Part shown: positions 3,995 to 57,523 of the stretch, one piece after another
Layout: every line of letters begins with the position of its first letter
How positions within the stretch are numbered: position 1 is the stretch's first letter
From: Octopus vulgaris
Taxonomy: Eukaryota
Assembly: GCA_951406725.2 (NCBI GenBank)
Contig: OX597818.1
Coordinates: 28,582,001-28,646,000, forward strand
Length of the DNA stretch: 64,000 nt
Direction: 5' to 3'
Translations under genes and position numbers: made by a program
The notes under the pieces: model-generated
The model's database searches: none
Seen by the model: the letters and a program-made list of their open reading frames with translations, nothing else
What the model was told of the DNA's origin: nothing

Positions 3995-4453
3995 AAACAT
4001 CTAACTATTGAAGTAGAAAAATTATATCAGAAAAGCCATTTCTATTCTTTTTTCTACAAATATAATTATATATATACACATACATGTATTTAAAAACAAA
4101 AAATATTTAAATCCAGCCAGAGTCCATGTACAGTATATGATCTTCATCCTCTCATTTACATATTGTTAAAAAGAAAAGTATTGTCTAATAAATTTATTTG
4201 GTATGAACAAAAGGAAAAAAGGAGTAATTTTGGTTAATATGACATTTCAAAATTAGACTTTGGAAAGAGGGTTCCTCAGTAAAGTGGCACCCAAAATTCT
4301 ATTCTACAAGAAAGATGCTAATGATTATGTAAAAGTAGTACTTATTGAGAGGCTGATTGTACAAAATTTACTTCACTGGGATATAATATCAGAATGTACT
4401 AACACTAAATTTTTTGTTAATAATTTTTGTTAATAAATTGCTTATATACTTAC

Positions 4454-4495
4454 CAGTAGGTTTCTTTGAAACATTAACGTAAGTACCAACCATGT
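4454..4495 (-). CDS. Putative host micro-exon B' (42 nt, phase 1-1), xMVGTYVNVSKKPT
   Basis: Minus strand reads TTTCTTAAAG|ACATGG...CCTACTG|GTAAGT. The frame is open and it is a paralog of exon 5770-5811. Confidence 0.55.
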
Positions 4496-4740
4496 CTTTA
4501 AGAAATTAGAAAAAGAACAAATAGCATGGCTATAAATAATATTTAAATTAAGATAGCTGTGTACTGATTCTACCATAATAAATACTAATGAGATACACTC
4601 AAACACAGTCACATATACATACATGCATATTAATACACAAAAGTTAGAGAGTGACATACTTCATAATAGTTAGCTGTCTGTCTATTTTAAAGATAGGTTC
4701 TAAGATCGTGCTGTGTACTAACAATATCAATTGTACTTAT

Positions 4741-4800
4741 GTGGTTGTTTCATTTCTAAATATTTGGGCTCGCTAACTTCAGCATATTGTTCTTCCACAA
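4741..4800 (-). CDS. Putative host micro-exon A' (60 nt), xVEEQYAEVSEPKYLEMKQP; donor site reads ATAAGT
   Basis: Acceptor is TTTCTTGAAG and it is a paralog of exon 6025-6084. The donor GT is replaced by AT, and read-through gives HKYN-stop at 4727. Confidence 0.55.
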
Positions 4801-5307
4801 CTTCAAGAAATAGAATAAAAGGCATATTTATTGCTTTCAGGGTGTGATTTAAATATTTTGATGATACACAAAAAGTAGCAGCTATATATATTTAGTACAG
4901 TTTGCACTATTTCCATCACTTCAATATTTGGTTGTGATATTTAACTTTAAGGGAAGCTATTCACAAATATGTTTAGAGCAATAAGGGTTTTTCTAAGATA
5001 AATATCTTGCTAGAGTTATAAATAAACAGGAGTGATTTTGGATACTAGAGGAGAACAGTTAATCACATTTACTATTGCAAATTTATTCCCATTCATTGTA
5101 TCTCATGCCTTAGCAAATATCTACTGAATTCATCATTACTTAATTATTTAGATTTTTTTGTACAAATAAAGCTTTCAAAGTAAATGTTTATGAACTACAT
5201 CATTAAGGGTAAGGATTGATAAAAAGGTAAAATATTAGAGTTAAATAGGAATATCTGTAAGAAGTTTATCGTATATGCAATGGAATTTTAATATTTTGAA
5301 AGGTTTT

Positions 5308-5665
5308 TAGGTGTGGCTGTGAGGTAAGAAGTTTAATTTCCAAACACATGGGTCTGGGTTTAGTCACATGATGAGGCACCTTGGGCGAGTGTATTCTGCT
5401 ATAATCCTGGGCTGACCAAAATCTTGTGAATGGATTTGGTATATATATAAGGGAGTGTGTGTGCCTTTGCGTTTGATCCCCATCACCACTTGACAATTGT
5501 GTTGATTTGTTCACATCCACAAAACTTAGCAGTTTAGCAAAAGAAACCAATAGAATAAGTAAAAGGCTTAAAAATAATAAGTACTCAGGTGGATTTGTTG
5601 GACTAAACCCTTGAAAGTGGTGCCTTAGCATGGCTGCAGTCCATTGACTGAAACAAATAAAAGAC
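5308..5665 (+). mobile_element. Degraded tRNA-derived SINE
   Basis: A-box-like GTGGCTGTGAGGTAAG, a degenerate B box and a GGCACCTTGGGCGAGTG core. Related pieces occur near 14690-14890, 21360-21440 and 50830-50900. Confidence 0.7.
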
Positions 5666-5769
5666 ATGCATTAAGCTGCCTATACTACTCAAAGAAAGAG
5701 TGAACCAAAATTTTGCTAACTCTTGCTCTAATGAATGAAAATTTATTATTGGATTGCTTATATAATTAC

Positions 5770-5811
5770 CATCAGGTTTCCTTGAAACATTAACATAAGA
5801 AATCTTCATGT
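5770..5811 (-). CDS. Putative host micro-exon B (42 nt, phase 1-1), xMKISYVNVSRKPD
   Basis: Minus strand reads TTTTTAAAG|ACATGA...CCTGATG|GTAATT, with an open frame. Confidence 0.6.
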
Positions 5812-6024
5812 CTTTAAAAAATAAAAAATAAAAACAGCATTATGTTAGTATTGTGTTGATACTACAATAATAAATGCTAATGAGACAGACTCAAACTCAC
5901 TCATACACACATATTAATAGATAAAAGTTAGAGAATGATACATTTCATGACTGTTAGCTTTCTGTTAATGTTTAAGATAATTTTTAAGATCATGCTGTGT
6001 ACTAACAATATTGTTTATACTTAC

Positions 6025-6084
6025 CTGCTGGTTTCAATTCTAAATAACTGGGCCCACTAGCTTCAGCATATTGCTCTTCATTAG
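6025..6084 (-). CDS. Putative host micro-exon A (60 nt, phase 1-1), xNEEQYAEASGPSYLELKPA
   Basis: Minus strand reads TTTTTTGAAG|CTAATG...CCAGCAG|GTAAGT. The sites are canonical and the exon splices in frame to B and A'. Confidence 0.65.
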
Positions 6085-7081
6085 CTTCAAAAAATTATAT
6101 AAAGATGTGCACATTTATTGTTTGGAGAGGATAGTTTTAATATTTTGATATTGTACAAAAAGTAACTAAAAAAAATAAAATACTAGTGAGATCTGTGGAA
6201 ATTCCACAGAACGAAAGAGATTAAGCAAAGCTATTTAAGAAAGAAAGGATGATTGTTATTTGTATTTTGCTAAGTGATTTCACTTCCAGTTGCAAAATAG
6301 TATATGATTTTAAAATTTTCTTCTGCTAAGCACCTTATATTTCTCTCTTTCTCTCTACCTCTTCAACGAACATTTTAACCATGTAATTCCCCTCTTCATG
6401 TCTTTAACATTTCCCTCTTTCTCTTTCCAACCTACAGTATGTCATTAACACTTCTCTCTCCCACTTTCCTCTCATCGTATTTGTGTCTTGCTCTTTGCCT
6501 CCCACTTCAACTAACTACGTGATGCATTTGACCTTAGCGTATTATTATACTCCTCTCTTCTTGCTTCTCTAACCATATTTCTCCCTCTCTCTCATTCCAC
6601 TTCCACCTCTCTAACAAACGAAAGTATAACAGGTGAACAAAGAAGCAAATTATTATATAGATAGTGTATATTTTATATGCAACAATGTTTTCATACATGC
6701 TACCCCAAGAAACCGAACTAAATCACCTCTTTTAAACTGCATCTTTCTCTTCTTCACATTTCCTCTTCATGCCATTAAAAACCACTCCTAAGTATGGTTC
6801 ACCTATTGACATTTGTCCTTTATCCTTACCATCAATGAGCTAACCTCCACTATTGTTATTGATGTTCCCTTTTTCCACTATTCACCACATCTTACATCTG
6901 CTGCCACTTCCAACAGACAGCCATTCCATGTTCATACCACAAATGATCCTCCACCCTTCAAATTCGTATCCCTTTCTCAATTTCCCCACCAATCACAACT
7001 GCCAGCCCCACAACTCATGACCCTATAATGAGCCCTCCATCATTCTCCTGTCGAAAGTGCTATTCTGCTGCTGTAAGAAAC

Positions 7082-7418
7082 AAAAACAGAATACACCATA
7101 CATTTATACCATACATATTGCCATCTCTGTACTGTGAGTTACCACTTCCTTTCCTTTGTACTATTTCCAGTCAGCATCTATTCCTTATTCTTACTGTGTC
7201 CACTTATATACGTAAATCCTTTCCCTGTTCATGCTTTATTACATCTCCTAAAAACAGAATACACCATACATTTATACCATACATATTGCCATCTCTGTAC
7301 TGTGAGTTACCACTTCCTTTCCTTTGTACTATTTCCAGTCAGCATCTATTCCTTATTCTTACTGTTTCCACTTATATACGTAAATCCTTTCCCTGTTCAT
7401 GCTTTATTACATCTCCTA
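7082..7418. repeat. Tandem duplication, 2 x 168 bp
   Basis: AAAAACAGAATACACCATAC...TTACATCTCCT begins at 7082 and again at 7250, with one visible mismatch. Confidence 0.95.
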
Positions 7419-7927: not shown

Positions 7928-8731
7928 CATCATCATAGCGTCCGTTTTCCATGCTAGCATGGGTTGGACGGGTCAACTGGGGTCTGTGAAGCTGGAAGGC
8001 TTCGTCAGGCCCAGTCAGATCTGGCAGTGTTTCTACGGCTGGATGCCCTTCCTAACGCCAACCACTCCGCGAGTGTAGTGGGTGTTTTTTACGTGCCACC
8101 TGCACAGGTGCCAGACAGAGCTGGCGAACGGCCACGAACGGATGGTGCTTTTACGTGTCACCGGCACGGGGCCAGGCGATGCTGGCAACGGACACGAACG
8201 GATGGTGCTTTTACGTGCCACCGACACGGGGCCAGACAGAGCTGGCAACCGGCCACGAATGGACGGTGCTTTTACGTGTCACCGGCACGGGGCCAGCCGA
8301 GGCTGGCAACGGACGCGAACGGATGGTGCTTTTACGTGCCACCGACACGGTTGCCAGACAGAGCTGGCAAACGGCCACGAGCGGACGGTGCTTTTACGTG
8401 TCACCGGCACGGGGGCCAGCCGAGGCTGGCAACGGACGCGAACAGATGGTGCTTTTACGTGCCACCGACATGGTTGCCAGACAGAGCTTGCAAACGGCCA
8501 CGAGCGGACGGTGCTTTTACGTGTCACCGGCACGGGGCCAGCCGAGGCTGGCAACGGACACGGACAGATGGTGCTTTTACGTGCCACCGACACGGGGCCA
8601 GACAGAGCTGGCAAACGGCCACGAACGGATGGTGCTTTTACGTGCCACCGACACGGGGCCAGACAGATGGCCAACGGCCACGAACGGATGGTGCTTTTAC
8701 GTGTCACCGGCACGGGGCCACGCGAGGCTGG

Positions 8732-9003: not shown

Positions 9004-9036
<33 letters not shown>

Positions 9037-9038
<2 letters not shown>

Positions 9039-10652
9039 GTGGGGGGAAATCAATATTCGTATATGTCAAAATTCTTTATCTATTTAATTTCTAATGAACA
9101 TAAATGGAATATACCAATACTATATTTGCATACACATGCATAAACTAAGAATATGCAAAAGAAACTAATAAATTATAGTAACTAAGGAATTTATAGACAA
9201 TTATAAATATTTAGGGTTGGAAAAAGTATTCGTACAGAATAAATTTTTGATTTTCTATGCCACAAAATACTGTTATAATATTTATTTTTAATAGAACTTT
9301 CTTGTTTGTTCCAATAATCTTATCAGTTGTCATTTTTAAGTATCAAAACGCTATCTTCTTCATTCAGCAGTGAGACAACATAAAGTAGTATCGTAATAAT
9401 GGCGAAAAGTAAAGAACTCCCAAATACAGTGAAAAACTTAATTATTGAACAGTGGAAAGGAGGTAAAAGTTACAGGAAAATATCAGAGACCCTTTGTATT
9501 CCATTTTCTACCATATCTTCATTTATTCAAAGATATAAAATATTGGGAACTGTTGAAAACAGAATAAGATCTGGTGCATCACGCAAGATTTCCCCTAGAG
9601 CTTTAAGAAAAATGAAGCGAAGAATCAAAAAAAAAAAAATGCAATGATCACCAGAAAGGAGTTGCAAGAAGATTTGTTAGCTTCAGGGACTAGTGTTACA
9701 CTACAAACAATCAGCAATGAACTTCATAGGAATGAACTGAAGTTACGCTCTCCTAGAATAACTCCACTGTTGACTAAAAGGCATAGAGATGCCCATTAAA
9801 AATTTGTTTTTTTGAACATAAAGATAAAACTGATACATTCTGGGAAAATGTTCTATAGACAGACGAGTCGAAAATTGAATTGTTTGGATGAAAGTTCGTG
9901 TAGCCATGTTTGGAGGAAAGATGGTACCGCCTATTCGCCGAAAAACACAATTCCTACCGTAAAGTTTGGAGGTTGCAGCATCATGGTGTGGGGGTGTTTC
10001 TCTGCAAATGATACTGGCAATTTACATGTGATAGATGGTGGAATGAATGCAGAGATGTACGAAAATATTTTGAACAATAATTTATGGGACCCTGTACAAA
10101 AGCTCCAGCTTTGTGAAGGGTGGGTTTTACTACAGGATAACGACCCTAAACACACAGCGAAGTCTACCAAAAAATGGATTGTTGATCACAATATAAAATT
10201 ATTAGAATGGCCAAGCCTGTCACCTGACTTGAACCTCATTGAAAATTTGTGGTGTTATTTGAAAATTAAGATTCATTCAAGAACCCCAACGTATTGCAGA
10301 TTTGAAGAAAATTTGTCAAGAAGAATGGGAAAAATTCCTAAAGAAACATGCAAGTCATTGATTAAGAACTACAAGGAGAGATTGGTTGAAGTGGAACTGA
10401 ATAATGGTTATGCTACGAAGTATTAAATCAGAATTATCAGTTATTTATGTTCTGTATGAATACTTTTTTCACCCCTAAATATTTATAATTGTATATAAGT
10501 TCCTTAGTTACTATAATTTATTAGTTTCTTTTGCATATTCTTAGTTTATGCATGCGTATGCAAATAGAATATTGGTATATCCTATTTATGTTCATTAGAA
10601 ATTAAATAAATAAAGAATTTTGACATATACGAATATTTATTTCCCCCCACTG
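9037..10652 (+). mobile_element. Tc1-family transposon with ~205-bp IR/DR-type TIRs
   Basis: CAGTGGGGGGAAAT... at the left and ...ATTTCCCCCCACTG followed by TA at the right. Each TIR has an internal direct repeat (TATTCGTA). Confidence 0.95.
9399..10426 (+). pseudogene. Tc1 DD34E transposase, frameshifted
   Basis: Paired-like HTH N-terminus plus TDESK, MVWGCF, QDNDPKH and SPDLNLIENLW, split by frameshifts and stops. Confidence 0.92.
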
Positions 10653-10693
10653 TATACATATATATATATATGTATATATATATACATATGTAC

Positions 10694-20502: not shown

Positions 20503-21658
20503 AAGTATATAAGTATAGATATATGTGTACATATGTATGTGTGTACATGTATATACATAAATATATGTATTTTCTCTATCTTGTTTTCACTCCTCTTAAT
20601 ATTTTAAACTCTTTGAAGAATTATAGACAGAGGTTCTATACATTTTTCAACATGTATACTTTTGTGACACCAATTCTATAATGAAACATGCGTAACGTAA
20701 AATTAAATTATACCAAACATTTTCATTCTTCTGTTTTGACATTTGTATTTGTGCGTGTGTGTGTATGCATGCATATGTTTGGGTGTGTGTAGTGTACATA
20801 TTACTATTATATATATTAACTGTATATATATAATTCTGAAAGTAATGGCATTAATTATACTTACTGTTTGGCTTGGATGAAATTGCATTAGCACGTGCCG
20901 CATCTTTAAAAGAGAAAATGAAAAATTATTTATTGTTTGTATGTGTGAGTGTGGTGCATGATATTTGAAATGAACTACTTCTAAGATGCATTGAAAAATA
21001 TCAATAATATAATATTATAATAAAATATATGGATATAGATGATACAGAAAAGTCAAATAAAAATAATTGACATATATAGGAGTGCATAATAAATTTAACT
21101 ATCATTGCAAGTGTGATAAATCAAGAAAAAGAGCATTTTCTCTTCCACTTTTTCATACTCAGCATTAAAAGTGGATAGATGATCAAGTCCTTTTGTTGTT
21201 GTTTACACCCAAGTCAGACATATGATCAAATGCATTTCCTTCATTGCATCAAAACACTGAAGTAAGATCTGGACCTCCAATCCATTGAATCCTGTCAATC
21301 CATCCAATTCATATCACCATAGAAAGTAGAAACAGCATGATGTTATATTATATGTGTAGAGGAGTAGACATGGCTGTGCGGTTAAGAAGCTTGCTTTGCA
21401 ACCATGTGGTTTGAGGTTCAGTCCCACTGAGTGGCACCATCTTTCTTTGTTTTCACATTTTGACTTCTTTTCAGATGGCAAGTTACCAATAACCTTTGTT
21501 ACAACATTTTTTGAAATAGTTTGTGTAAATAATCAATATGTTTACTTAACTGAGAAATGTGTGGAAAAATAAAATCAACTGATTCACTATTAATTCAATT
21601 CTGAATTTGATCTGCAAGAATTTCAAGAACTTTTACCTATATACATATATACATGCAC

Positions 21659-24600
21659 CAGGGGCGTGCACTCTCAGCAATGCAAGGTATGTGCTGCATG
21701 CCTTCCTTGTTTCAAAGAAAATACGTCCAGTTGTTTTAGAAATATTGTCTCCACTTCGTACATCTGCTTTGATAAATGCTTTTAGAAGATCGCATGATAC
21801 ACACTCCCTCTCTGTCTGTATTAGTTTGTCCTTCCTTCCTCTCTCTCTCTCTATCTTAGTGACTCGATAAATTTATCGCTTGTCATGCGTTGGGAAGACA
21901 GCATGAGTCCCTTCTCTCTGTCTTTGATAGTTTGTCCCTTCTCCCTCTTTCTTTGTTTAAAAGATATACTACGAGGAATGGTCACCCCCTTCTCTCTCAG
22001 CGATTCGACAAATTCAGTTTGGCGTGTCATGCTGTGCTTAGATCGCATATCACGCCTCTGGCTATTTTGACCGGAACACGAGCCGTCCCATAATTCTTGT
22101 TTTAGCCAGCTGAAATGTTGGAATAGCCTTCGCATGTAAGTTTGAAATTTTTTATCCAAAACATCCGTTTGCACTATCATATTTTTAGAATGTTTTGAAA
22201 GCAAAAATATCTACATTATATTTCTTATTTCAGAAATAGCTAATTAATCTTAAATTAATTTAACAAAGGGTATTTTTCCGTTTTGTTGAAATTGACTTAA
22301 AATTTACGCCGGCGCTTCCACGTGGGTCCTTAAATAAGAGCAGCCTTTTTAAAAATGAGTGAAATGTGTGCTATAAACGATATTTTGAGAACTAGTTTTT
22401 CTAAAAGGGACTTCGATGGGAAAAAATTAATTATAAATCGCGGGAGACCAACACCGAATTTACCTAATTTGCGAAGCTACAACAAGAAATTCACGAGACA
22501 ATTTCAGGTTAATTCGTATGAAAAGAAGAAATGGTTAACTGGAAGTGTTGCTCTTAATAAATTATTCTGTTGGCCGTGTTTACTTTTTGGCTTAGAAAAA
22601 AATGTTTGGAATGATAAAGGCTATGATGATTTAAATAATTTACATATGGCTATGCTAAAGCACGAGCGTTCTCAAAGGCATATAAAATGTTTGATAGACC
22701 TTAAAATATTCGGGAATGTTCGCATAGACTTACAATTAGATGCACGTTAAAATCAAAGCATACAACAGCATAATGAGAAAGTTCGACGAAACAGATCCAT
22801 TCTGCAACGATTGATCGATGTTGTTATTTTTTTAGGCCTCCAGGAATTATCGTTTCGGGGTCATTTTGAATCTGAAGGCTCTAATAATCGGGGAAATTAT
22901 AAAGAACTCGTTTATTTGATCAGTAAGTATGACAAACAAATGGAAAGTCATTTAGATACAGCTTCTATCTTCACTGGTCTGTCGAACAGAATTCAAAATG
23001 ACTTGATCGAAGCAATTCATAAAGTTATGTTGAATGAGATGCAGAAGGAAATTGACCAAGCTAAGTTTGTTTCTATTCTTGTTGATGAGACATCTGATGT
23101 CTCAGCATCTTCACAACTGTCAACAGTTTTACGTTATGTTACAGAAGACTGTGTGACGAAAGAACGATTTATCGGTTTTAGTGATGTTAGTGCAGATCGA
23201 TCTGCAAATGCTTTATCTGAACATGTTTTTAAATGCATTGAGACGTGGGAATGTGGAAACAAATTGATTGCGCAGACATATGATGGTGCCGCTACAATGG
23301 CAGGACAACTAAATGGGTTACAGGCAAAAGTAAGAAAGAAATATGAATGTGCGATCTTTATTCATTGTTGTGCCCATATCCTAAATTTAGTTCTTTCACA
23401 ATCATGCTCTGCTATGAAAGAATGCAAGATATTTTTTTCTACAATAAATGGACTCGGTACATTTTTTACGAAATCACCGAAAAGGACTAATGCATTAGAT
23501 AATATTGTTAAAAAAAGATTTCCGAAAGCAACAGCAACTAGATGGAATTACTCCTCACGTCTTATTATTACCACAAAGGAAAATTATAATTTCATAATCA
23601 GCCTTTTTGAACACATCATTGAAAATCCTGAAGCATGGGATGAGACCACCATAAATTCAGCAATTGGATTCTTACACATTTTAAAAGCTCCTGATTTCTT
23701 ATTTTTGTTAGAGGTATTCAGTGACATTTTTTCTTTTACTGACGTCTTATTTAACATACTCCAGAGTAAAAGTCATGACATAGTGTATTGTAAACAGCAA
23801 ATAGATAAAACTAGAACTGTACTCGAAAACAAACTTGATAATTTTTCAGTCTTTTATGATAGGTTAGGGGAAAAATATGGAGTCGATGCAGGAATCGGAA
23901 TTCAGAGATCCAAGAATATATCTATTGATCCCCAACGACATTATAGAACGCTTTATAACAAAATTATAAGTACAATAGTTGACCAAATAAAAGCACGATA
24001 TTCATCCTTAGAAGAGTTTAAATTCATGGAACTTTTGAATTTCAACAAAGTTGATGAGTATTGCAAACAATTTCCTGTGGACTCTTTAGATTCTTTAAGA
24101 ACAACTTATGGCAGATTTTTTGATGTAATATGATTACAAAGTGAGCTCAATGTGATGTATTCAATGAAAGATTTTAAAAAACCAAGTGTAAGTCATTTAA
24201 TGAGTTACATTAACAGCACTGATCTTGTTGAAGCTATGCCAGAACTCTTCAATCTGTGCAAGTTGATTTTGACAATTCCGTCTACCACTGCTTCTGTAGA
24301 GCGATCCTTTTCTGCATTAAGTAGAATTAAAACATACCAAAGAAATGCGACAGGAGAAAGAAGACTGTCTGGGTTAGCACTAATGTCAATTGAAAAAGAT
24401 TTATTACAAGAATTGATGAAAAGAGAAGATTTCTATGAAAATGTGATAGATATATTTGCCCAGAAAGATCGAAGAATTGAATTAATTTATAAATGAGCTA
24501 AGTAACATTTTAAAACATTAAAAAATATATATATTAAAGAGCATATATTACAGGTTTTGCTTAGTGTTTGTTATAACGTAAGGTTCGACCTTCTTACATC

Positions 24601-36176: not shown

Positions 36177-36968
36177 CATATATACACACATATACATAAA
36201 GTAAGTACAGATTGAGCAATGGGGTTGATGAAATTGATTTCTCCCTCCTAAAAAATTGCTGGCCTTGTGCCAAACATTGAAACCAATGCAAAATTATCTG
36301 TCATTTGGTGTTAATTATACTTACTGAGAGCTTCATCTGGAATAGTTGCATAATTATTTTCAGCACCTTGAAGAAAAGAAATGGAAAATGCAAAACTTAT
36401 TATTTCAGTGTGTAGTGCATGGTATCTAAAATTAAATGTAAGTATATATATATATACATACACATATACATGCACACACACACATGAAGTCCTTCTTGAG
36501 AGACACATTTTTCCATTAGCCAATACAGAATTACAGATAGTATTTATGGAAATTTGATTTACTGTTGGGTGACTTTTGGTCAAATTGTGTGCGTATATAT
36601 ATTATATATATATATGTATATATATATGATGGTGGTACTCTGTCAGTAACAACAACGAGGATTCCAGCTGATCTGATCAATGGAACAGCTGGCTCATGAA
36701 ATTAACATGCAAGAGGCTGCTGAGCACTCCATAGACATGTGTACCCGTAACATAGTTCTCGGGGAGATTCAGGGTGACAGAAACAGGAAGTAAGAGTGAG
36801 AGAAAGTTGTGGTGAAGAGTATAGCAGGGTTGCCCCCACCCCTGCTGGAGCTTAATGGAGCTTTAGGTGTTTTCATTCAATAAACATTCATAAAGCCCGA
36901 TCTGGGAATTGAAACTGCAATCCCATGACTGCAAGTATGCTGCCCTAACCACTGGGCTATTGCACCTC

Positions 36969-37179: not shown

Positions 37180-37472
37180 TTTGTTTTCTTCTCACTTACT
37201 TGTGTCTCTCCTTACTAACCGTCAGCCATTTTATATTTCTATTGTATGTCTTCATTTGCGCATGTTTATATCTCTATGTGCGTCTATGTTTATTTAGTGT
37301 GTGTGTGGGGGGGATGCCTGTAATATTTGTATCTTCTGGTTATATACATTCTTGTAATTTGTATTTTGTTTTTGTTGTTGTTGCTTTTGTTCTAATTTTG
37401 TTCATGTGTTTACATCCACCCATTATTATCATTACATATGCTTGTATGTATGTATAACAACAATATTAGTAA

Positions 37473-39490
37473 CAACTGTACAGGCGCATGAGGAGAGAGA
37501 AAAGGTCCTCAATGCCCACATGATGATGTGGACAATTGTTCTGGGACCTCAGAAACGTACTGCAAAGAATTTCCAAGCCTGGAACAATGATATCCCGGCA
37601 CTGTATGGACTTCGCAAGGACCATAAAGGTTTTACTGACCCTATAGCAGGACCACCAACAAGACCAGTCTGTGGAGCGAATATTGCTAGCAATTACAGAA
37701 TCTCCTACTTCCTCTCAATGATCATACGCCCTATAATCAGGATGTCACCTGATGTGTGTGACAGCACAGAAGATCTCCTAAGCAGGATCAGTGACTGTAA
37801 CAAAACTTGTGACTTGACAGGATGTATAGTAGGTAGCATGGATGTGGTATCCCTATACCCATCGATTGACGTAGATTTTGCAGTGGAGAAGTGCGTGGAG
37901 ATGATCAACGAGAGCCAGGTGGAGTTCTGTAATGTCGACACAGAAGAACTGGGCCTCCTACTTAGACTGACATATAATAGTGAATACTTAGATAAACATA
38001 ATCTTAGTAGTTTCTGCCCCAGTAGATGTTTAAGAGGTAGACCGCCTACAATTACTTCTATGGCTAGGAAGACACATATAGAAAGATGGCGCGGATGGAC
38101 CAGAGCCATACGGAGCCCCGCAAATGTCCATCAGGTAAAGAAAATGATCGCACATGCACTAGGAGCTAGTATAAGAGTTACCCTAAAAGGCCACACATTT
38201 AAATTTAATAATAAAATATATGCCCAGGACGAGGGGGCAGCCATCGGTGTTAGTATCGCTGGTGATGTGGCCAACCTCTTCATGGTATGGTGGGACAGAA
38301 GGCTTAAAGAATGCCTACTGCAGAAATCCATACTCGTAAACATGTACTCTCGCTATGTTGATGATATCAATATAGTAGTAAAGGCACCCCCACAAGAGAG
38401 TACTGTTGATATAGTAATAGAAACTAATACTATGGAGAGCATCCAGCAAATAGCTAACTCCATCCACCAGAGTATTAAGGTCACAATAGACTACCCCACT
38501 AAACACCCCAACCATAGACTACCAGTACTAGACACTGAACTCTGGCTAGAAATTGTGAAAAATAAAACCCAAATCCTTCATTCATACTATGCAAAACCTA
38601 TGGCCTCAAAATACCTGATCCACCGGAACTCAGCCATTGCGGGCAATGCCAAATTCAATATTTTGATGGCAGACCTCGTCAGAATAATGAGAAATGTGTC
38701 ACGCATGTGCGAGCCTACAGAATTAAAAAGACACATACAGTACTTCATTCACCGCATGCAGTTCTCAGGTTACAGCCATAAAGAAAGGATCAGAGTATAC
38801 AAAGGAGCCATGAAGAAATTTGATAATATATTATGTAATGATAGGAATGGGATTTGCCCACTCTATAGGAACAAGTCATGGAACACTATAGAAAGGACAA
38901 CAAAGAAAATAGGGAAGGCCAACTCTTGGTATGATAGCCATAAATACCAGAGTGTCATGTTCGTTGACACCACCCCTGGAGGTGAACTAGCGTACCGCTT
39001 TAGAAGGACCCTAGATAAACTTAAACTAAGAATTAAGGTTGTTGAAAAGCCAGGCAACCCTATCAGATCTATAATTGGTAGAAGCTATCCTTTTAGTAGA
39101 ACTCTCTGTACGGATAACTATTGCACTGTATGTAGATTTAGCCCACAAACGAACTGTAAAGCCAGAAATGTGGTCTATAGTATAAGATGTATAGAGGGAC
39201 GATGCAGTAACAAGACAGTAACATACGTAGGGGAAACTGCAAGAAGCATTGGTGAGCAGGTGAATGAACATTGGAGACAACTCAAGGAAGGTAAAAGCTC
39301 ATCGATTCTGTACCAACACGCCGAACAAGAACACGGGGGATCAATCAATAACATAGAGATTAAGATATTGTCCACACATAGAACAGATGCAACAATTAGA
39401 CAAATTACAGAAGCTACACATATAATAGAAAATAAACCTAGCCTGAATAGAAAACTAGAATGGAGCAATAGCGCACACCACAACATATGA
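37473..39490 (+). CDS. PLE reverse transcriptase + GIY-YIG endonuclease, 5'-truncated but uninterrupted
   Basis: LYGLRKDHK, TRPV, SMDVVSLYPSI, QDEGAAIG, YSRYVDD, LPVLD, a Cys-rich linker and NVVYSIRC..YVGETARS. The listed start at 37406 lies inside the inverted repeat. Confidence 0.9.
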
Positions 39491-42239: not shown

Positions 42240-42498
42240 TATATACACGCACACACACATAAAGTAAGTACAGATTGAGCAATGGGGCTGATGAAATTGA
42301 TTTCTCCCTCCCAAAAAATTGCTGGCCTTGTGCCAAACATTGAAACCAATACAAAATTATTTGTTATTTGGTGTTAATTATACTTACTGAGAGCTTCATC
42401 TGAAATAGTCGCATAATTATCTTCAGTACCTTTAAGAAAAGAAATGGAAAATGCAAAACTTATTATTTCAGTGTGTAGTGCATCATACTAAAATTAAC

Positions 42499-53860: not shown

Positions 53861-56367
53861 ACACTTATTGCTAAATAGTAGACAAGAACAGGCCTTGAGA
53901 TGTTTACATCTGCATGGTAAAGCCTCTCATACAGGTATTGGGTAGAATGATAACACAGTCTTCTCACTTGCACACCACAGTGAATGCCTCTGATGCTTAG
54001 TTTTTCTGTCTGCACAATTCTGCATAAAGAAGTGCAGATCACTGAAAGTGGATGGTACCTGCAGAAAAGGGAGACCCAAGAAGTCATGAAATGAAGTAGT
54101 AAGGACCGATCTCAGGATGTTAGTGAAACTAAGTCCTAGAAGTGTTGTGTCACACCAAAGTTAACAAGAAAACTTCTCTCACACCTTACCATAACAAACT
54201 AAACCACATTTCTACATCTCTTCTCTTCCTTGCATTTCCACTTCATACACTATGCTTACCTTCCACTTCCCAATCCTGTCCTCTTGGCCACTTAAAAAGA
54301 ATCCAGTCTACACTGAAAAATGGTTAGTATTTGTAAGGGCATCCAAACCTTGCTAAAACTGACCTTGTCTGTGCTTGTGCCATGTAAAAATCACTAAGCC
54401 CACTCTGGTGAGTAGTTGGTGTTAGGAAGGGCATCCAGCTGTAAAAATCCTGCCCAAACAGTAACAGAAGTCTGGTGCAGGATTCTACCTGGCCAGCTCC
54501 TATCAAACTGTCCTACCCTTGCCAGCATGGAAAGTGGATGTTAAACGACAATGACGATGATGATGTTATGCATGTTGTCTATACAACTGGAATATACCTG
54601 ATGCATTTCTTTCCGGAGATTTAGCATCCACAGAGAGAACCTCTCTGTTGTCAACAAAGGCAGTTGCTCCCTGGACTTTTATAACCTATCCTTACTCCAC
54701 CTATTATGCTTTCACAACACTCATTTCTAATGCTGATTAAGACTGTTAAGTTATGGAAGATACCAACTATTATCAAACTCGAGAAATTTCCTTTATTTCT
54801 TGGGAGTGCTTTTATTGCTACTCTTATGAATGAAATCCCTTTCTCTATAAGCCTGTCTTGTACCTTTTGTGTACTTATTGTTTACATTGGTTATATAGTA
54901 TAGAGTGTTTACTGGCTCCCTTTCTACATAATGAGTGTGGCTACATCCAGTTTGGAGTAGTGTTTTGTTTTATTTTCTGCAAGCTAAAAATTTCATTTTT
55001 TCCAAATTAACCTTTAGGCCCTTTCATTCTAGGCTCTGCTTTTATGTTAGGAACTTTTCTCCAAAACCTTTACCTGAACTGATTATGAGTACCTATGGCT
55101 GCATTTATGTAGAACGAATTGTTCTTGATGGCTGACCACTTAATATCTTACTTTTTCGCAACATGGTCTCTTCATAATTTGTCTGTCTAACTAAATTCAT
55201 CTTTTCCTCATACTTAAAGGTGAAGTTTGTTTAAAGAAATGGCTAAACAATACCGTAGTATCTAAAAACAAGGAATACCTAACTTAGTTACTCGTTGTCA
55301 ATTATTGTAGCATTGCCACTATTTATAATGATACTTGTTTACACTATAACTATGTAGTAACAATAAATATATAATGAAGCAGGGTAACAACCTAACAATA
55401 CAACAAGTGCTCCACAAACTATAAATGAACCAACAAATGATATTCCGACAAACTCTCCAAATGGTACCTTATGACTTTCTGCAATTAACGCGTATTCTCT
55501 CTCATTCTGACCACTATTATTTATAGTCGTTCGGTCAAGTCTATTCTCACAGGGGGTGTCATGACTCTCGCCACAACACAGGGAAAGGATGAAAAGATCA
55601 TAACTAGAATGCCTTTGGTAAAATGTCTGTTCAATCAAGGCTAACTTATTAAGATATAATGTTTTTCAGCTTTTTCATAACCTTTAACTTGAGATGATTG
55701 ACTTAACCAATGAACAGATTGTTTCCTTTCAGCTTATATTCAGTTTCTTGGATGCTGCTCTTGAATTTCATTTCTAAAATATAGTTGGCATTTCTTATGC
55801 ATCACAAACTTTGAAAAGTATTCTATAGAATATATATTTTAAAGTAGCTGGTTGGTTGATAAAAGCTTTCTGATTAATATAACGAAATTTATAGATAGAT
55901 TTGATGTTACATTTTCACTAAGCAGTTGGTTCAACCAGATAATATTTCATTGTCTACACTGCTTCTAGTGCTGGTATTTTTAAGGCATTGCATAATAATT
56001 TGTCAGTTTTAATAGAACAAACATCATACTAATATCGATTAGTGCTCTTGTTGATATAGTTTCTCATTCAGCTTTTTATACAATTCTATTTTCTTGTATG
56101 ATACTGCCATTTAGATCTATGCCAAGGTTAGTTGTTTCTCTAAATTTTAGGCAAAGTTTCCTAGAATGTTAATCAAGTTCCCATATATTTATCATATTTA
56201 GGGTCTTAGAATAGAACAATTTGCTACTCATTCGAAAATAAGTATGGAAGAAGCAGTTAGGTAAGCCAAAATGCAAATTTCTTAAAAACAAAACTTACCT
56301 TTTGCTGATGAAGTCCTATTAAATTCATAAAATAATTATAAAATAAAATATTTACAATATTTTCAAT

Positions 56368-57423: not shown

Positions 57424-57523
57424 NNNNNNNNNNNNNNNNNNNNNNNNNNNNNNNNNNNNNNNNNNNNNNNNNNNNNNNNNNNNNNNNNNNNNNNNNNNNN
57501 NNNNNNNNNNNNNNNNNNNNNNN
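57424..57523. other. Assembly gap (100 N)
   Basis: Run of n characters. Confidence 1.

Follow-up and report, generated by a model that had tools for sequence, protein, structure and literature searches.

An octopus locus of small tyrosine-bearing segments raises the question of whether these segments belong to a real gene and, if so, what that gene encodes. The stretch of Octopus vulgaris DNA analyzed here, 64,000 nucleotides long and called the window below, was first read from its letters alone, and that earlier note proposed a hidden host gene, on the minus strand, in which exon duplication had added tyrosine docking sites to the tail of a signaling or immune-type receptor. We compared the window with itself, with its paralogues, with public sequencing runs and with public gene models.

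RESULTS

A duplicated block with four micro-exons

The direct duplication of about 430 bp that had been read from the letters was borne out by self-comparison of the window, in which the two units listed in Table 1 share 73% identity (E 3e-72), and no second comparable match was found within the 64 kb. Each unit does hold a 60-nt and a 42-nt minus-strand segment, as described; all four reading frames are open, all are phase 1-1, and three tyrosines stand at equal positions in A/B and A'/B', just as had been claimed for the two copies. The proposed AG/GT boundaries held at seven of the eight splice sites and failed at the donor of A', which reads ATAAGT instead of GT. As written, A' cannot splice onward, and it is either skipped in frame or dead in the window copy. 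Identity between the copies is 46/60 nt for A against A' and 32/42 nt for B against B', barely above the 73% of the block as a whole. The dN/dS comparison of the two copies, suggested earlier as a check, gave no deficit and was uninformative, with pN at 0.24 (77 sites) not below pS at 0.19 (19 sites).

Table 1. Features of the tail gene in the window (position 1 is the first letter of the window)
Feature	Position	Strand	Description
Tail exon A, 60 nt	6025-6084	-	Phase 1-1, AG/GT; motifs YAEA and YLEL
Tail exon B, 42 nt	5770-5811	-	Phase 1-1, AG/GT; YVNV motif
Tail exon A', 60 nt	4741-4800	-	Phase 1-1; acceptor intact, donor mutated to AT; motifs YAEV and YLEM
Tail exon B', 42 nt	4454-4495	-	Phase 1-1, AG/GT; YVNV motif
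Duplication unit 1	5742-6164	-	Exon A, intron, exon B and flanks
Duplication unit 2	4426-4877	-	Exon A', intron, exon B' and flanks
Upstream tail exon, 39 nt	20865-20903	-	Phase 1-1, B-like, without tyrosine; peptide in P0037
Upstream tail exon N2, 42 nt	36325-36366	-	YATI motif; peptide in P0008 and P0012
Upstream tail exon N1, 42 nt	42388-42429	-	YATI motif; together with N2 only in P0012
Juxtamembrane exon, 17 nt	56299-56315	-	Phase 2-1; conserved in paralogues; peptide in P0037
Assembly gap, 100 N	57424-57523	.	Expected place of the window copy's membrane-helix and Ig exons

The micro-exons are spliced

Contigs from four public runs (X1, X2, X3 and X16), whose RNA nature is a guess and which cannot separate the window copy from its sister, were aligned to window positions 4010-5800 at 90% likeness. 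Predicted splice joints with GT-AG ends were present in three of the four runs (X1, X3 and X16), which come from three studies and two organisms; over the same positions X2 had no splice joints and covers introns. The donor of exon B is in use in contigs of all three of the former. One joint leads from B to an A'-type exon (4800|5770, in X3 and X16), and another runs from B directly to B' with A' skipped (4495|5770, at depth 20.8 in X1 and 29.6 in X16), each in two of the four runs. Because the 4800|5770 pieces, where listed, differ from the window at 4-5 letters, they probably originate from another copy than the window's. One X16 contig, identical to B' (0 differences), continues into the following A-type exon but skips its first 9 nt. 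This third A-type exon is situated outside the window, about 4.2 kb beyond its start; the normal acceptor is mutated, but an AG that could serve lies 9 nt further on, exactly where the contig enters, and so the reading frame is preserved. In X3, a loose end corresponds to a stop-codon-bearing terminal exon, again outside the window and about 8.8 kb beyond its start.

Public gene models add to this picture. The A-to-B join is found in P0008 and P0037 only, the peptide of exon A occurs in P0008, P0009 and P0037, and 18 of its 19 residues are alike in P0047 of O. bimaculoides; P0008, P0037 and P0047 hold exon peptides of the window's micro-exons. The micro-exons are real and spliced. Of the order A-B-A' that had been proposed, the step from B to an A'-type exon (5770|4800) was recovered in X3 and X16; the path onward from A' was lost with its dead donor, and contigs skip it. 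As the exons are symmetric (phase 1-1), tail cassettes can be skipped without a break in frame, and isoform models of O. bimaculoides differ by 14- and 20-residue cassettes in all three paralogues aligned.

A multi-Ig receptor gene interrupted by an assembly gap

Comparison of paralogous regions yielded four further small exons (Table 1), and a search for TM and ectodomain exons upstream, also proposed earlier, was successful in two other copies. In the sister copy, 179 kb away and 98.5-99.3% identical over the tail, Ig and TM exons lie upstream of the tail exons with no assembly gap between, and in the copy on C28 Ig exons and a membrane-helix exon precede the tail exons, again gap-free; a signal peptide is likewise encoded upstream in both copies. 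It is near certain that the micro-exons are part of the cytoplasmic tail of a multi-Ig, single-pass receptor. The proposal of a signaling or immune-type receptor tail that gained tyrosine sites by exon duplication is thus supported by the spliced exons and by the gap-free Ig-TM-tail order in the sister and C28 copies. The hidden host gene is indeed a gene, but not a hidden one, as public models already carry it as an uncharacterized protein.

A hydrophobic segment at 55390-55470 was rejected as the TM exon, the stretch being not common to the paralogues and matching no family protein. The 108-residue open frame around it (55339-55665, minus strand), whose hydrophobic stretch mimics a TM exon, is not conserved in paralogues. 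A MEGF10/Draper-type receptor was dropped when motif scans for EGF, SRCR, PTP and similar exons came back empty.

The window also carries repetitive and mobile sequence. An intron of the gene holds a 710-residue open frame (37358-39490, plus strand) whose motifs are of the reverse-transcriptase and GIY-YIG-like kinds, and which we take to be Penelope-type. Two further intronic elements are one with 229-nt inverted ends (9011-10678), presumably Tc1-like, and a transposase with stops (22334-24496), presumably hAT-like. Ten copies of a 60-61-nt tandem repeat occupy 8119-8720, and a 168-nt near-perfect tandem duplication lies at 7082-7417.

Positions 1-57423 of the window lie in a gap-bounded piece (C5:28376708-28639423) that is colinear with C5:28.646-28.816 Mb, and that piece represents a duplicated haplotype or, alternatively, a tandem copy of the gene whose Ig exons are unassembled. 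The chance that the window copy represents the neighboring gene's second haplotype, left uncollapsed, and not a gene of its own, falls just short of even. It would account for a 263-kb piece that is bounded by two gaps and colinear with the adjacent one, that matches it at 98.5-99.3% in the tail and at 89-99%, with large indels, in the flanks, and that ends after an identical signal-peptide exon. There is, however, a signal-peptide exon downstream of the tail, which means a tandem array in at least one haplotype; a signal-peptide exon lies 6.8 kb beyond the window end. Moreover, the signal-peptide exon matches P0013 of O. sinensis, the first domain of which has no match above 65% in the assembly, so one gene's Ig exons are missing.

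A clustered octopus receptor family

The duplicated block has at least 43 matches genome-wide (40 of 57 candidates scored), clustered at C5:27.67-28.77 Mb, at C28:8.0 Mb and in three places on C31, same-strand within each gene and mostly behind Ig genes. The pair described in the earlier note does not stand alone, making up two of a gene cluster's 43 or more units. With a paralogue's Ig exon as query we obtained 14 Octopus proteins, each labeled either uncharacterized or 'Ig-like'. In full-length family members a signal peptide is followed by about eight Ig domains, one uncharged TM and a tail of 60-430 residues that carries up to 30 tyrosines. Pfam placed Ig_3/I-set above cut-off in seven of seven proteins, with no FN3 family among the matches of those seven, and a TM was found in 9 of 16 proteins among those listed. 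Structure prediction gave P0013 as a string of beta-sandwich domains, in agreement with tandem-Ig structures; the fold matches are generic (9-16% identity, TM-score 0.15-0.36), the top ones including neurofascin, Dscam, contactin and SYG-2. Close full-length matches in the genome number eight for domain 1, seven for domain 2 and eight for domain 4, so the stretch C5:27.4-29.4 Mb holds at least seven distinct genes of the family.

O. sinensis, O. bimaculoides and Argonauta hians (43-45%) all have close homologues. The cuttlefish homologue, P0024, stands at 34% and has a repeated tyrosine tail of its own; below that level come generic Ig proteins, at about 22-35%. The family appears in public models as LOC115212249 and LOC115229375 (O. 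sinensis), LOC106880794 (O. bimaculoides) and LOC115212114-like (O. vulgaris, Argonauta hians), where the annotation goes no further than uncharacterized or Ig-like and the exon peptides are already predicted. We found no mention in the literature of six LOC identifiers of family models and no description of the family, its cassette-built tails or the selection pattern, in a search whose coverage left most subscription journals and supplementary gene tables outside. The family is absent from the text of PMC13230822 and its one supplement, and the accessible part of PMC13428168 holds nothing on it. While the gene is already in databases, the family, its cassette tails and its selection pattern are apparently undescribed.

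At C31:2845000-2940000, a block of tail exons matching the C28 copy at 99% follows part of an LRR adhesion-GPCR gene on that gene's strand, at a distance of about 11 kb; the 60 kb upstream hold no Ig or TM exon of the family. Public model P0111 fuses this block to the LRR adhesion-GPCR, either as an annotation chimera or through tail capture. An isolated first-domain exon at C5:28363273-28363548 (plus strand), 13 kb from a gap, is 13 nucleotides off the sister gene's, and no further family exon was found after it. Two distant matches to domain 2 (34%), in opposite orientations at C5:98632679-98757893 and 70 Mb from the cluster, possibly represent a related Ig family.

Constraint on the tail exons and selection on the outer Ig domains

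Profile searches over the fetched stretches gave 42 A-type and 54 B-type hits. The exact length is kept in 33 of the A and 49 of the B hits, and both AG and GT are kept in 29 and 48, respectively, which exceeds chance, with AG or GT missing in 13 and 6. Lengths divisible by three, found in 27/31 distinct A and 37/41 distinct B exon sequences, likewise exceed chance. The remark that exon lengths are kept while introns take indels also stood up, the gap fraction across copies being 0-1% in exons versus 2-9% in flanking introns. In sequence, the introns are nearly as conserved as the exons across copies of the block, and exon identity at codon positions 1-2 is not above that at position 3. Whole-exon omega is weakly below one, near neutral, at 0.57 for A and 0.79 for B by IQ-TREE and at 0.71 and 0.90 by our own model.

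Among distinct full-length exons, the second A tyrosine is present in 21/22 (site omega about 0.15, p 0.010, uncorrected), the B tyrosine in 32/35 (about 0.5, p 0.09, uncorrected) and the first A tyrosine in 8/22 (about 1.0, uncorrected). Only the second A tyrosine is clearly constrained, so the conservation of six tyrosines that had been noted is true of the window's two copies and does not extend to the whole family. Several Q, P, E and S sites in the tail exons are as constrained as the tyrosines.

For the outer Ig domains, M2a was preferred to M1a, with a 2dL of 31.6 in domain 1 and 34.0 in domain 2, and the selected sites of domain 2 are grouped in loop-like variable segments. Site models gave no positive selection in domain 4 (2dL 1.3) or in the tail exons. 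These models, run with our own code on 7-8 sequences in which gene conversion can inflate the signal, favor positive selection on the two outer Ig domains.

Tail motifs and a contrasting neighbor

When A is followed by B, two tyrosines stand with 11 residues between them, as YxxL/M-x8-YxNV, a pair that reads as ITAM-like in spacing and fails the strict consensus. The strict form, YxxI/L-x(6-12)-YxxI/L, occurs 0 times in the A/B arrays of P0001, P0002 and P0008, in which the relaxed form YxxL/M/V-x8-YxxV occurs seven, two and three times, respectively. Exon B fits the ITIM consensus once. YxxM is a binding site for PI3K p85. The motifs make it probable that the tail tyrosines are phosphotyrosine docking sites. 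YVNV is described as a classical Grb2 motif in the accessible part of PMC2194190. The N1 and N2 exons, which occur together in model P0012 alone, would jointly give YATI-x10-YATI; the x10 spacer fits the 6-12 range stated in the accessible part of PMC6994640 and lies outside the 6-9 range in that of the Hydractinia Alr paper (bioRxiv 10.1101/2022.03.04.482883).

One family gene has a tail of another kind. The P0006 gene, at C5:29.10-29.39 Mb, encodes a first domain two residues from the sister gene's, and the domain 1 exons of the two differ by 2 replacement and 0 silent changes, with flanks identical at 389/390 and 390/390 positions. The corresponding changes are 16 replacement and 2 silent in domain 2 and 22 and 4 in domain 4, and identity is 98.8% over 38 kb that include the first domain. 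In the assembly the gene is inverted relative to the sister gene, with two N gaps between them, so the orientation is insecure. Its tail is also built of micro-exons, four of 51 nt. It ends in a YAEL...TIYADL pair, a form common to P0016 of Argonauta, which we take to resemble a phosphatase-recruiting ITIM/ITSM pair. By strict scoring, this putative inhibitory tail has 0 ITIMs and 0 ITSMs, and P0016, scored with the generally used ITSM consensus, has one strict ITSM, the only tail with one. A homologue search with the P0006 tail returned only itself, among proteins of 436-1390 residues. At C5:29300001-29390000 the 51-nt array of this ITIM-type paralogue shows a YAKV motif and B-like splice contexts and is an independent expansion.

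DISCUSSION

The 43 or more matches, with introns nearly as conserved as exons, are what might be expected if the block were a dispersed repeat or a transposon fragment with chance splice-like signals. We regard this as vanishingly improbable. The matches keep to a few clusters on C5, C28 and C31, same-strand per gene and mostly behind Ig genes; the scattered, gene-independent copies in both orientations expected of a transposon were not seen; and the exact spliced joints in contigs, the exon peptides in gene models and the gap-free Ig-TM-tail order refute it. A quite different thought is that the exons are genuine and that the arrays largely reflect unequal crossing-over, as its neutral by-product, the exons being tolerated because their symmetry keeps the frame and only one or two tyrosines mattering. 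Near-neutral omega, the lack of an excess at codon positions 1-2, the many broken copies, A' included, and pN not below pS between the window's copies all fit this. We nevertheless think it quite unlikely, as constraint is seen on splice sites, on lengths and on the second A tyrosine, and tyrosine tail repeats recur in the ITIM-type neighbor, with its 51-nt exons, and in cuttlefish.

The family might also serve adhesion or neural wiring, in the manner of nephrin, SYG or Dscam, with tyrosines coupling contact to the cytoskeleton and diversity serving cell identity. Adhesion receptors with tyrosine-cluster tails are known, the ectodomain is a long tandem-Ig chain, and neurofascin, Dscam, contactin and SYG-2 head the fold matches. 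Those matches are, however, generic at their low identity and TM-scores, Pfam finds no FN3 domain, and positive selection on outer domains together with species-level turnover would fit wiring genes poorly, which leaves this an unlikely reading. Fast-evolving outer domains suggest instead that the family likely recognizes microbes or foreign cells, and the balance tips slightly toward an immune role.

The reading that we prefer, and hold to be reasonably probable, is that duplicated, skippable tyrosine exons relay recognition from the fast-evolving outer domains, probably in immunity. The tails would have grown as 60-nt and 42-nt exons, which preserve the frame, were copied in tandem. Ligand binding would cluster the receptor, and a Src-family kinase could then phosphorylate the acidic-flanked tyrosines, YVNV/YxN sites recruiting Grb2-type adaptors and YxxM sites PI3K p85, with the tail acting as a LAT-type scaffold built into the receptor. 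How many docking sites there are, and hence how strong the signal is, would depend on gene copy and exon skipping, and the neighbor with the same first domain and a terminal ITIM/ITSM-like pair might be a damping partner. More speculatively, and on the doubtful side in our view, the cluster could be a cephalopod paired immune-receptor system, in which pathogen-selected Ig receptors swap their outer domain between an ancestral inhibitory gene and activating genes, the strength of whose signal is dialed as one-tyrosine micro-exons are copied, lost or skipped.

Little of cephalopod immune recognition has been mapped, and the family offers named, testable candidate receptors. It has hallmarks of vertebrate leukocyte receptor clusters, namely, tandem birth and death, first domains held in common, positive selection on the outer domains and tails that contrast. 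It also points to a route to a signaling scaffold, with one predicted docking site per symmetric micro-exon, the number of sites being changeable by duplication, splice-site loss or exon skipping with the frame intact. Because site number can change without a frame break, whether it tunes output becomes directly testable.

By analogy, the octopus family would work like oyster CgIgR, Hydractinia Alr and Siglec-11/16, with membership in none of them shown. As described in the accessible part of PMC6994640, CgIgR is a hemocyte receptor that binds bacteria and recruits Syk. Like the octopus proteins, it is a type I receptor of a mollusc in which tandem Ig domains and one TM precede a tail with tyrosine motifs. 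Its Ig domains number five, against about eight in the octopus proteins, and it has one classical ITAM where they carry up to 30 tail tyrosines, on cassette exons. The Hydractinia Alr genes, so far as the accessible part of their description goes (bioRxiv 10.1101/2022.03.04.482883), are likewise clustered invertebrate IgSF genes with alternative splicing, and their tails diverge more than their ectodomains, with an ITAM in some and an ITIM in others. Alr proteins combine V-set, I-set and Fn3-like domains and have a shown role in allorecognition; the octopus family differs in having no Fn3 by Pfam (the Alr Fn3-like fold is itself unusual), a longer ectodomain and repeated micro-exon tails. Siglec-11 and Siglec-16, from the accessible part of PMC5701461, are similar as neighboring genes that are near-identical in the N-terminal domain and differ in their signaling ends; an apparent head-to-head order would be a further likeness, the octopus orientation spanning two assembly gaps. 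Siglec-16 lacks tail motifs and signals via an adaptor (PMC5701461), whereas both octopus partners have long tyrosine tails and uncharged TMs. The charged TM and motif-free tail of an activating paired receptor were not seen in the octopus proteins, whose TM cores are uncharged and whose tails are long.

LAT is an adaptor in its own right and has hardly any ectodomain, whereas in the octopus family the scaffold would be fused to a putative ligand-binding receptor. The likeness is in the tail, where LAT-type transmembrane adaptors, in the accessible part of PMC2194190, also carry several Grb2-type motifs of the YVNV/YxN kind.
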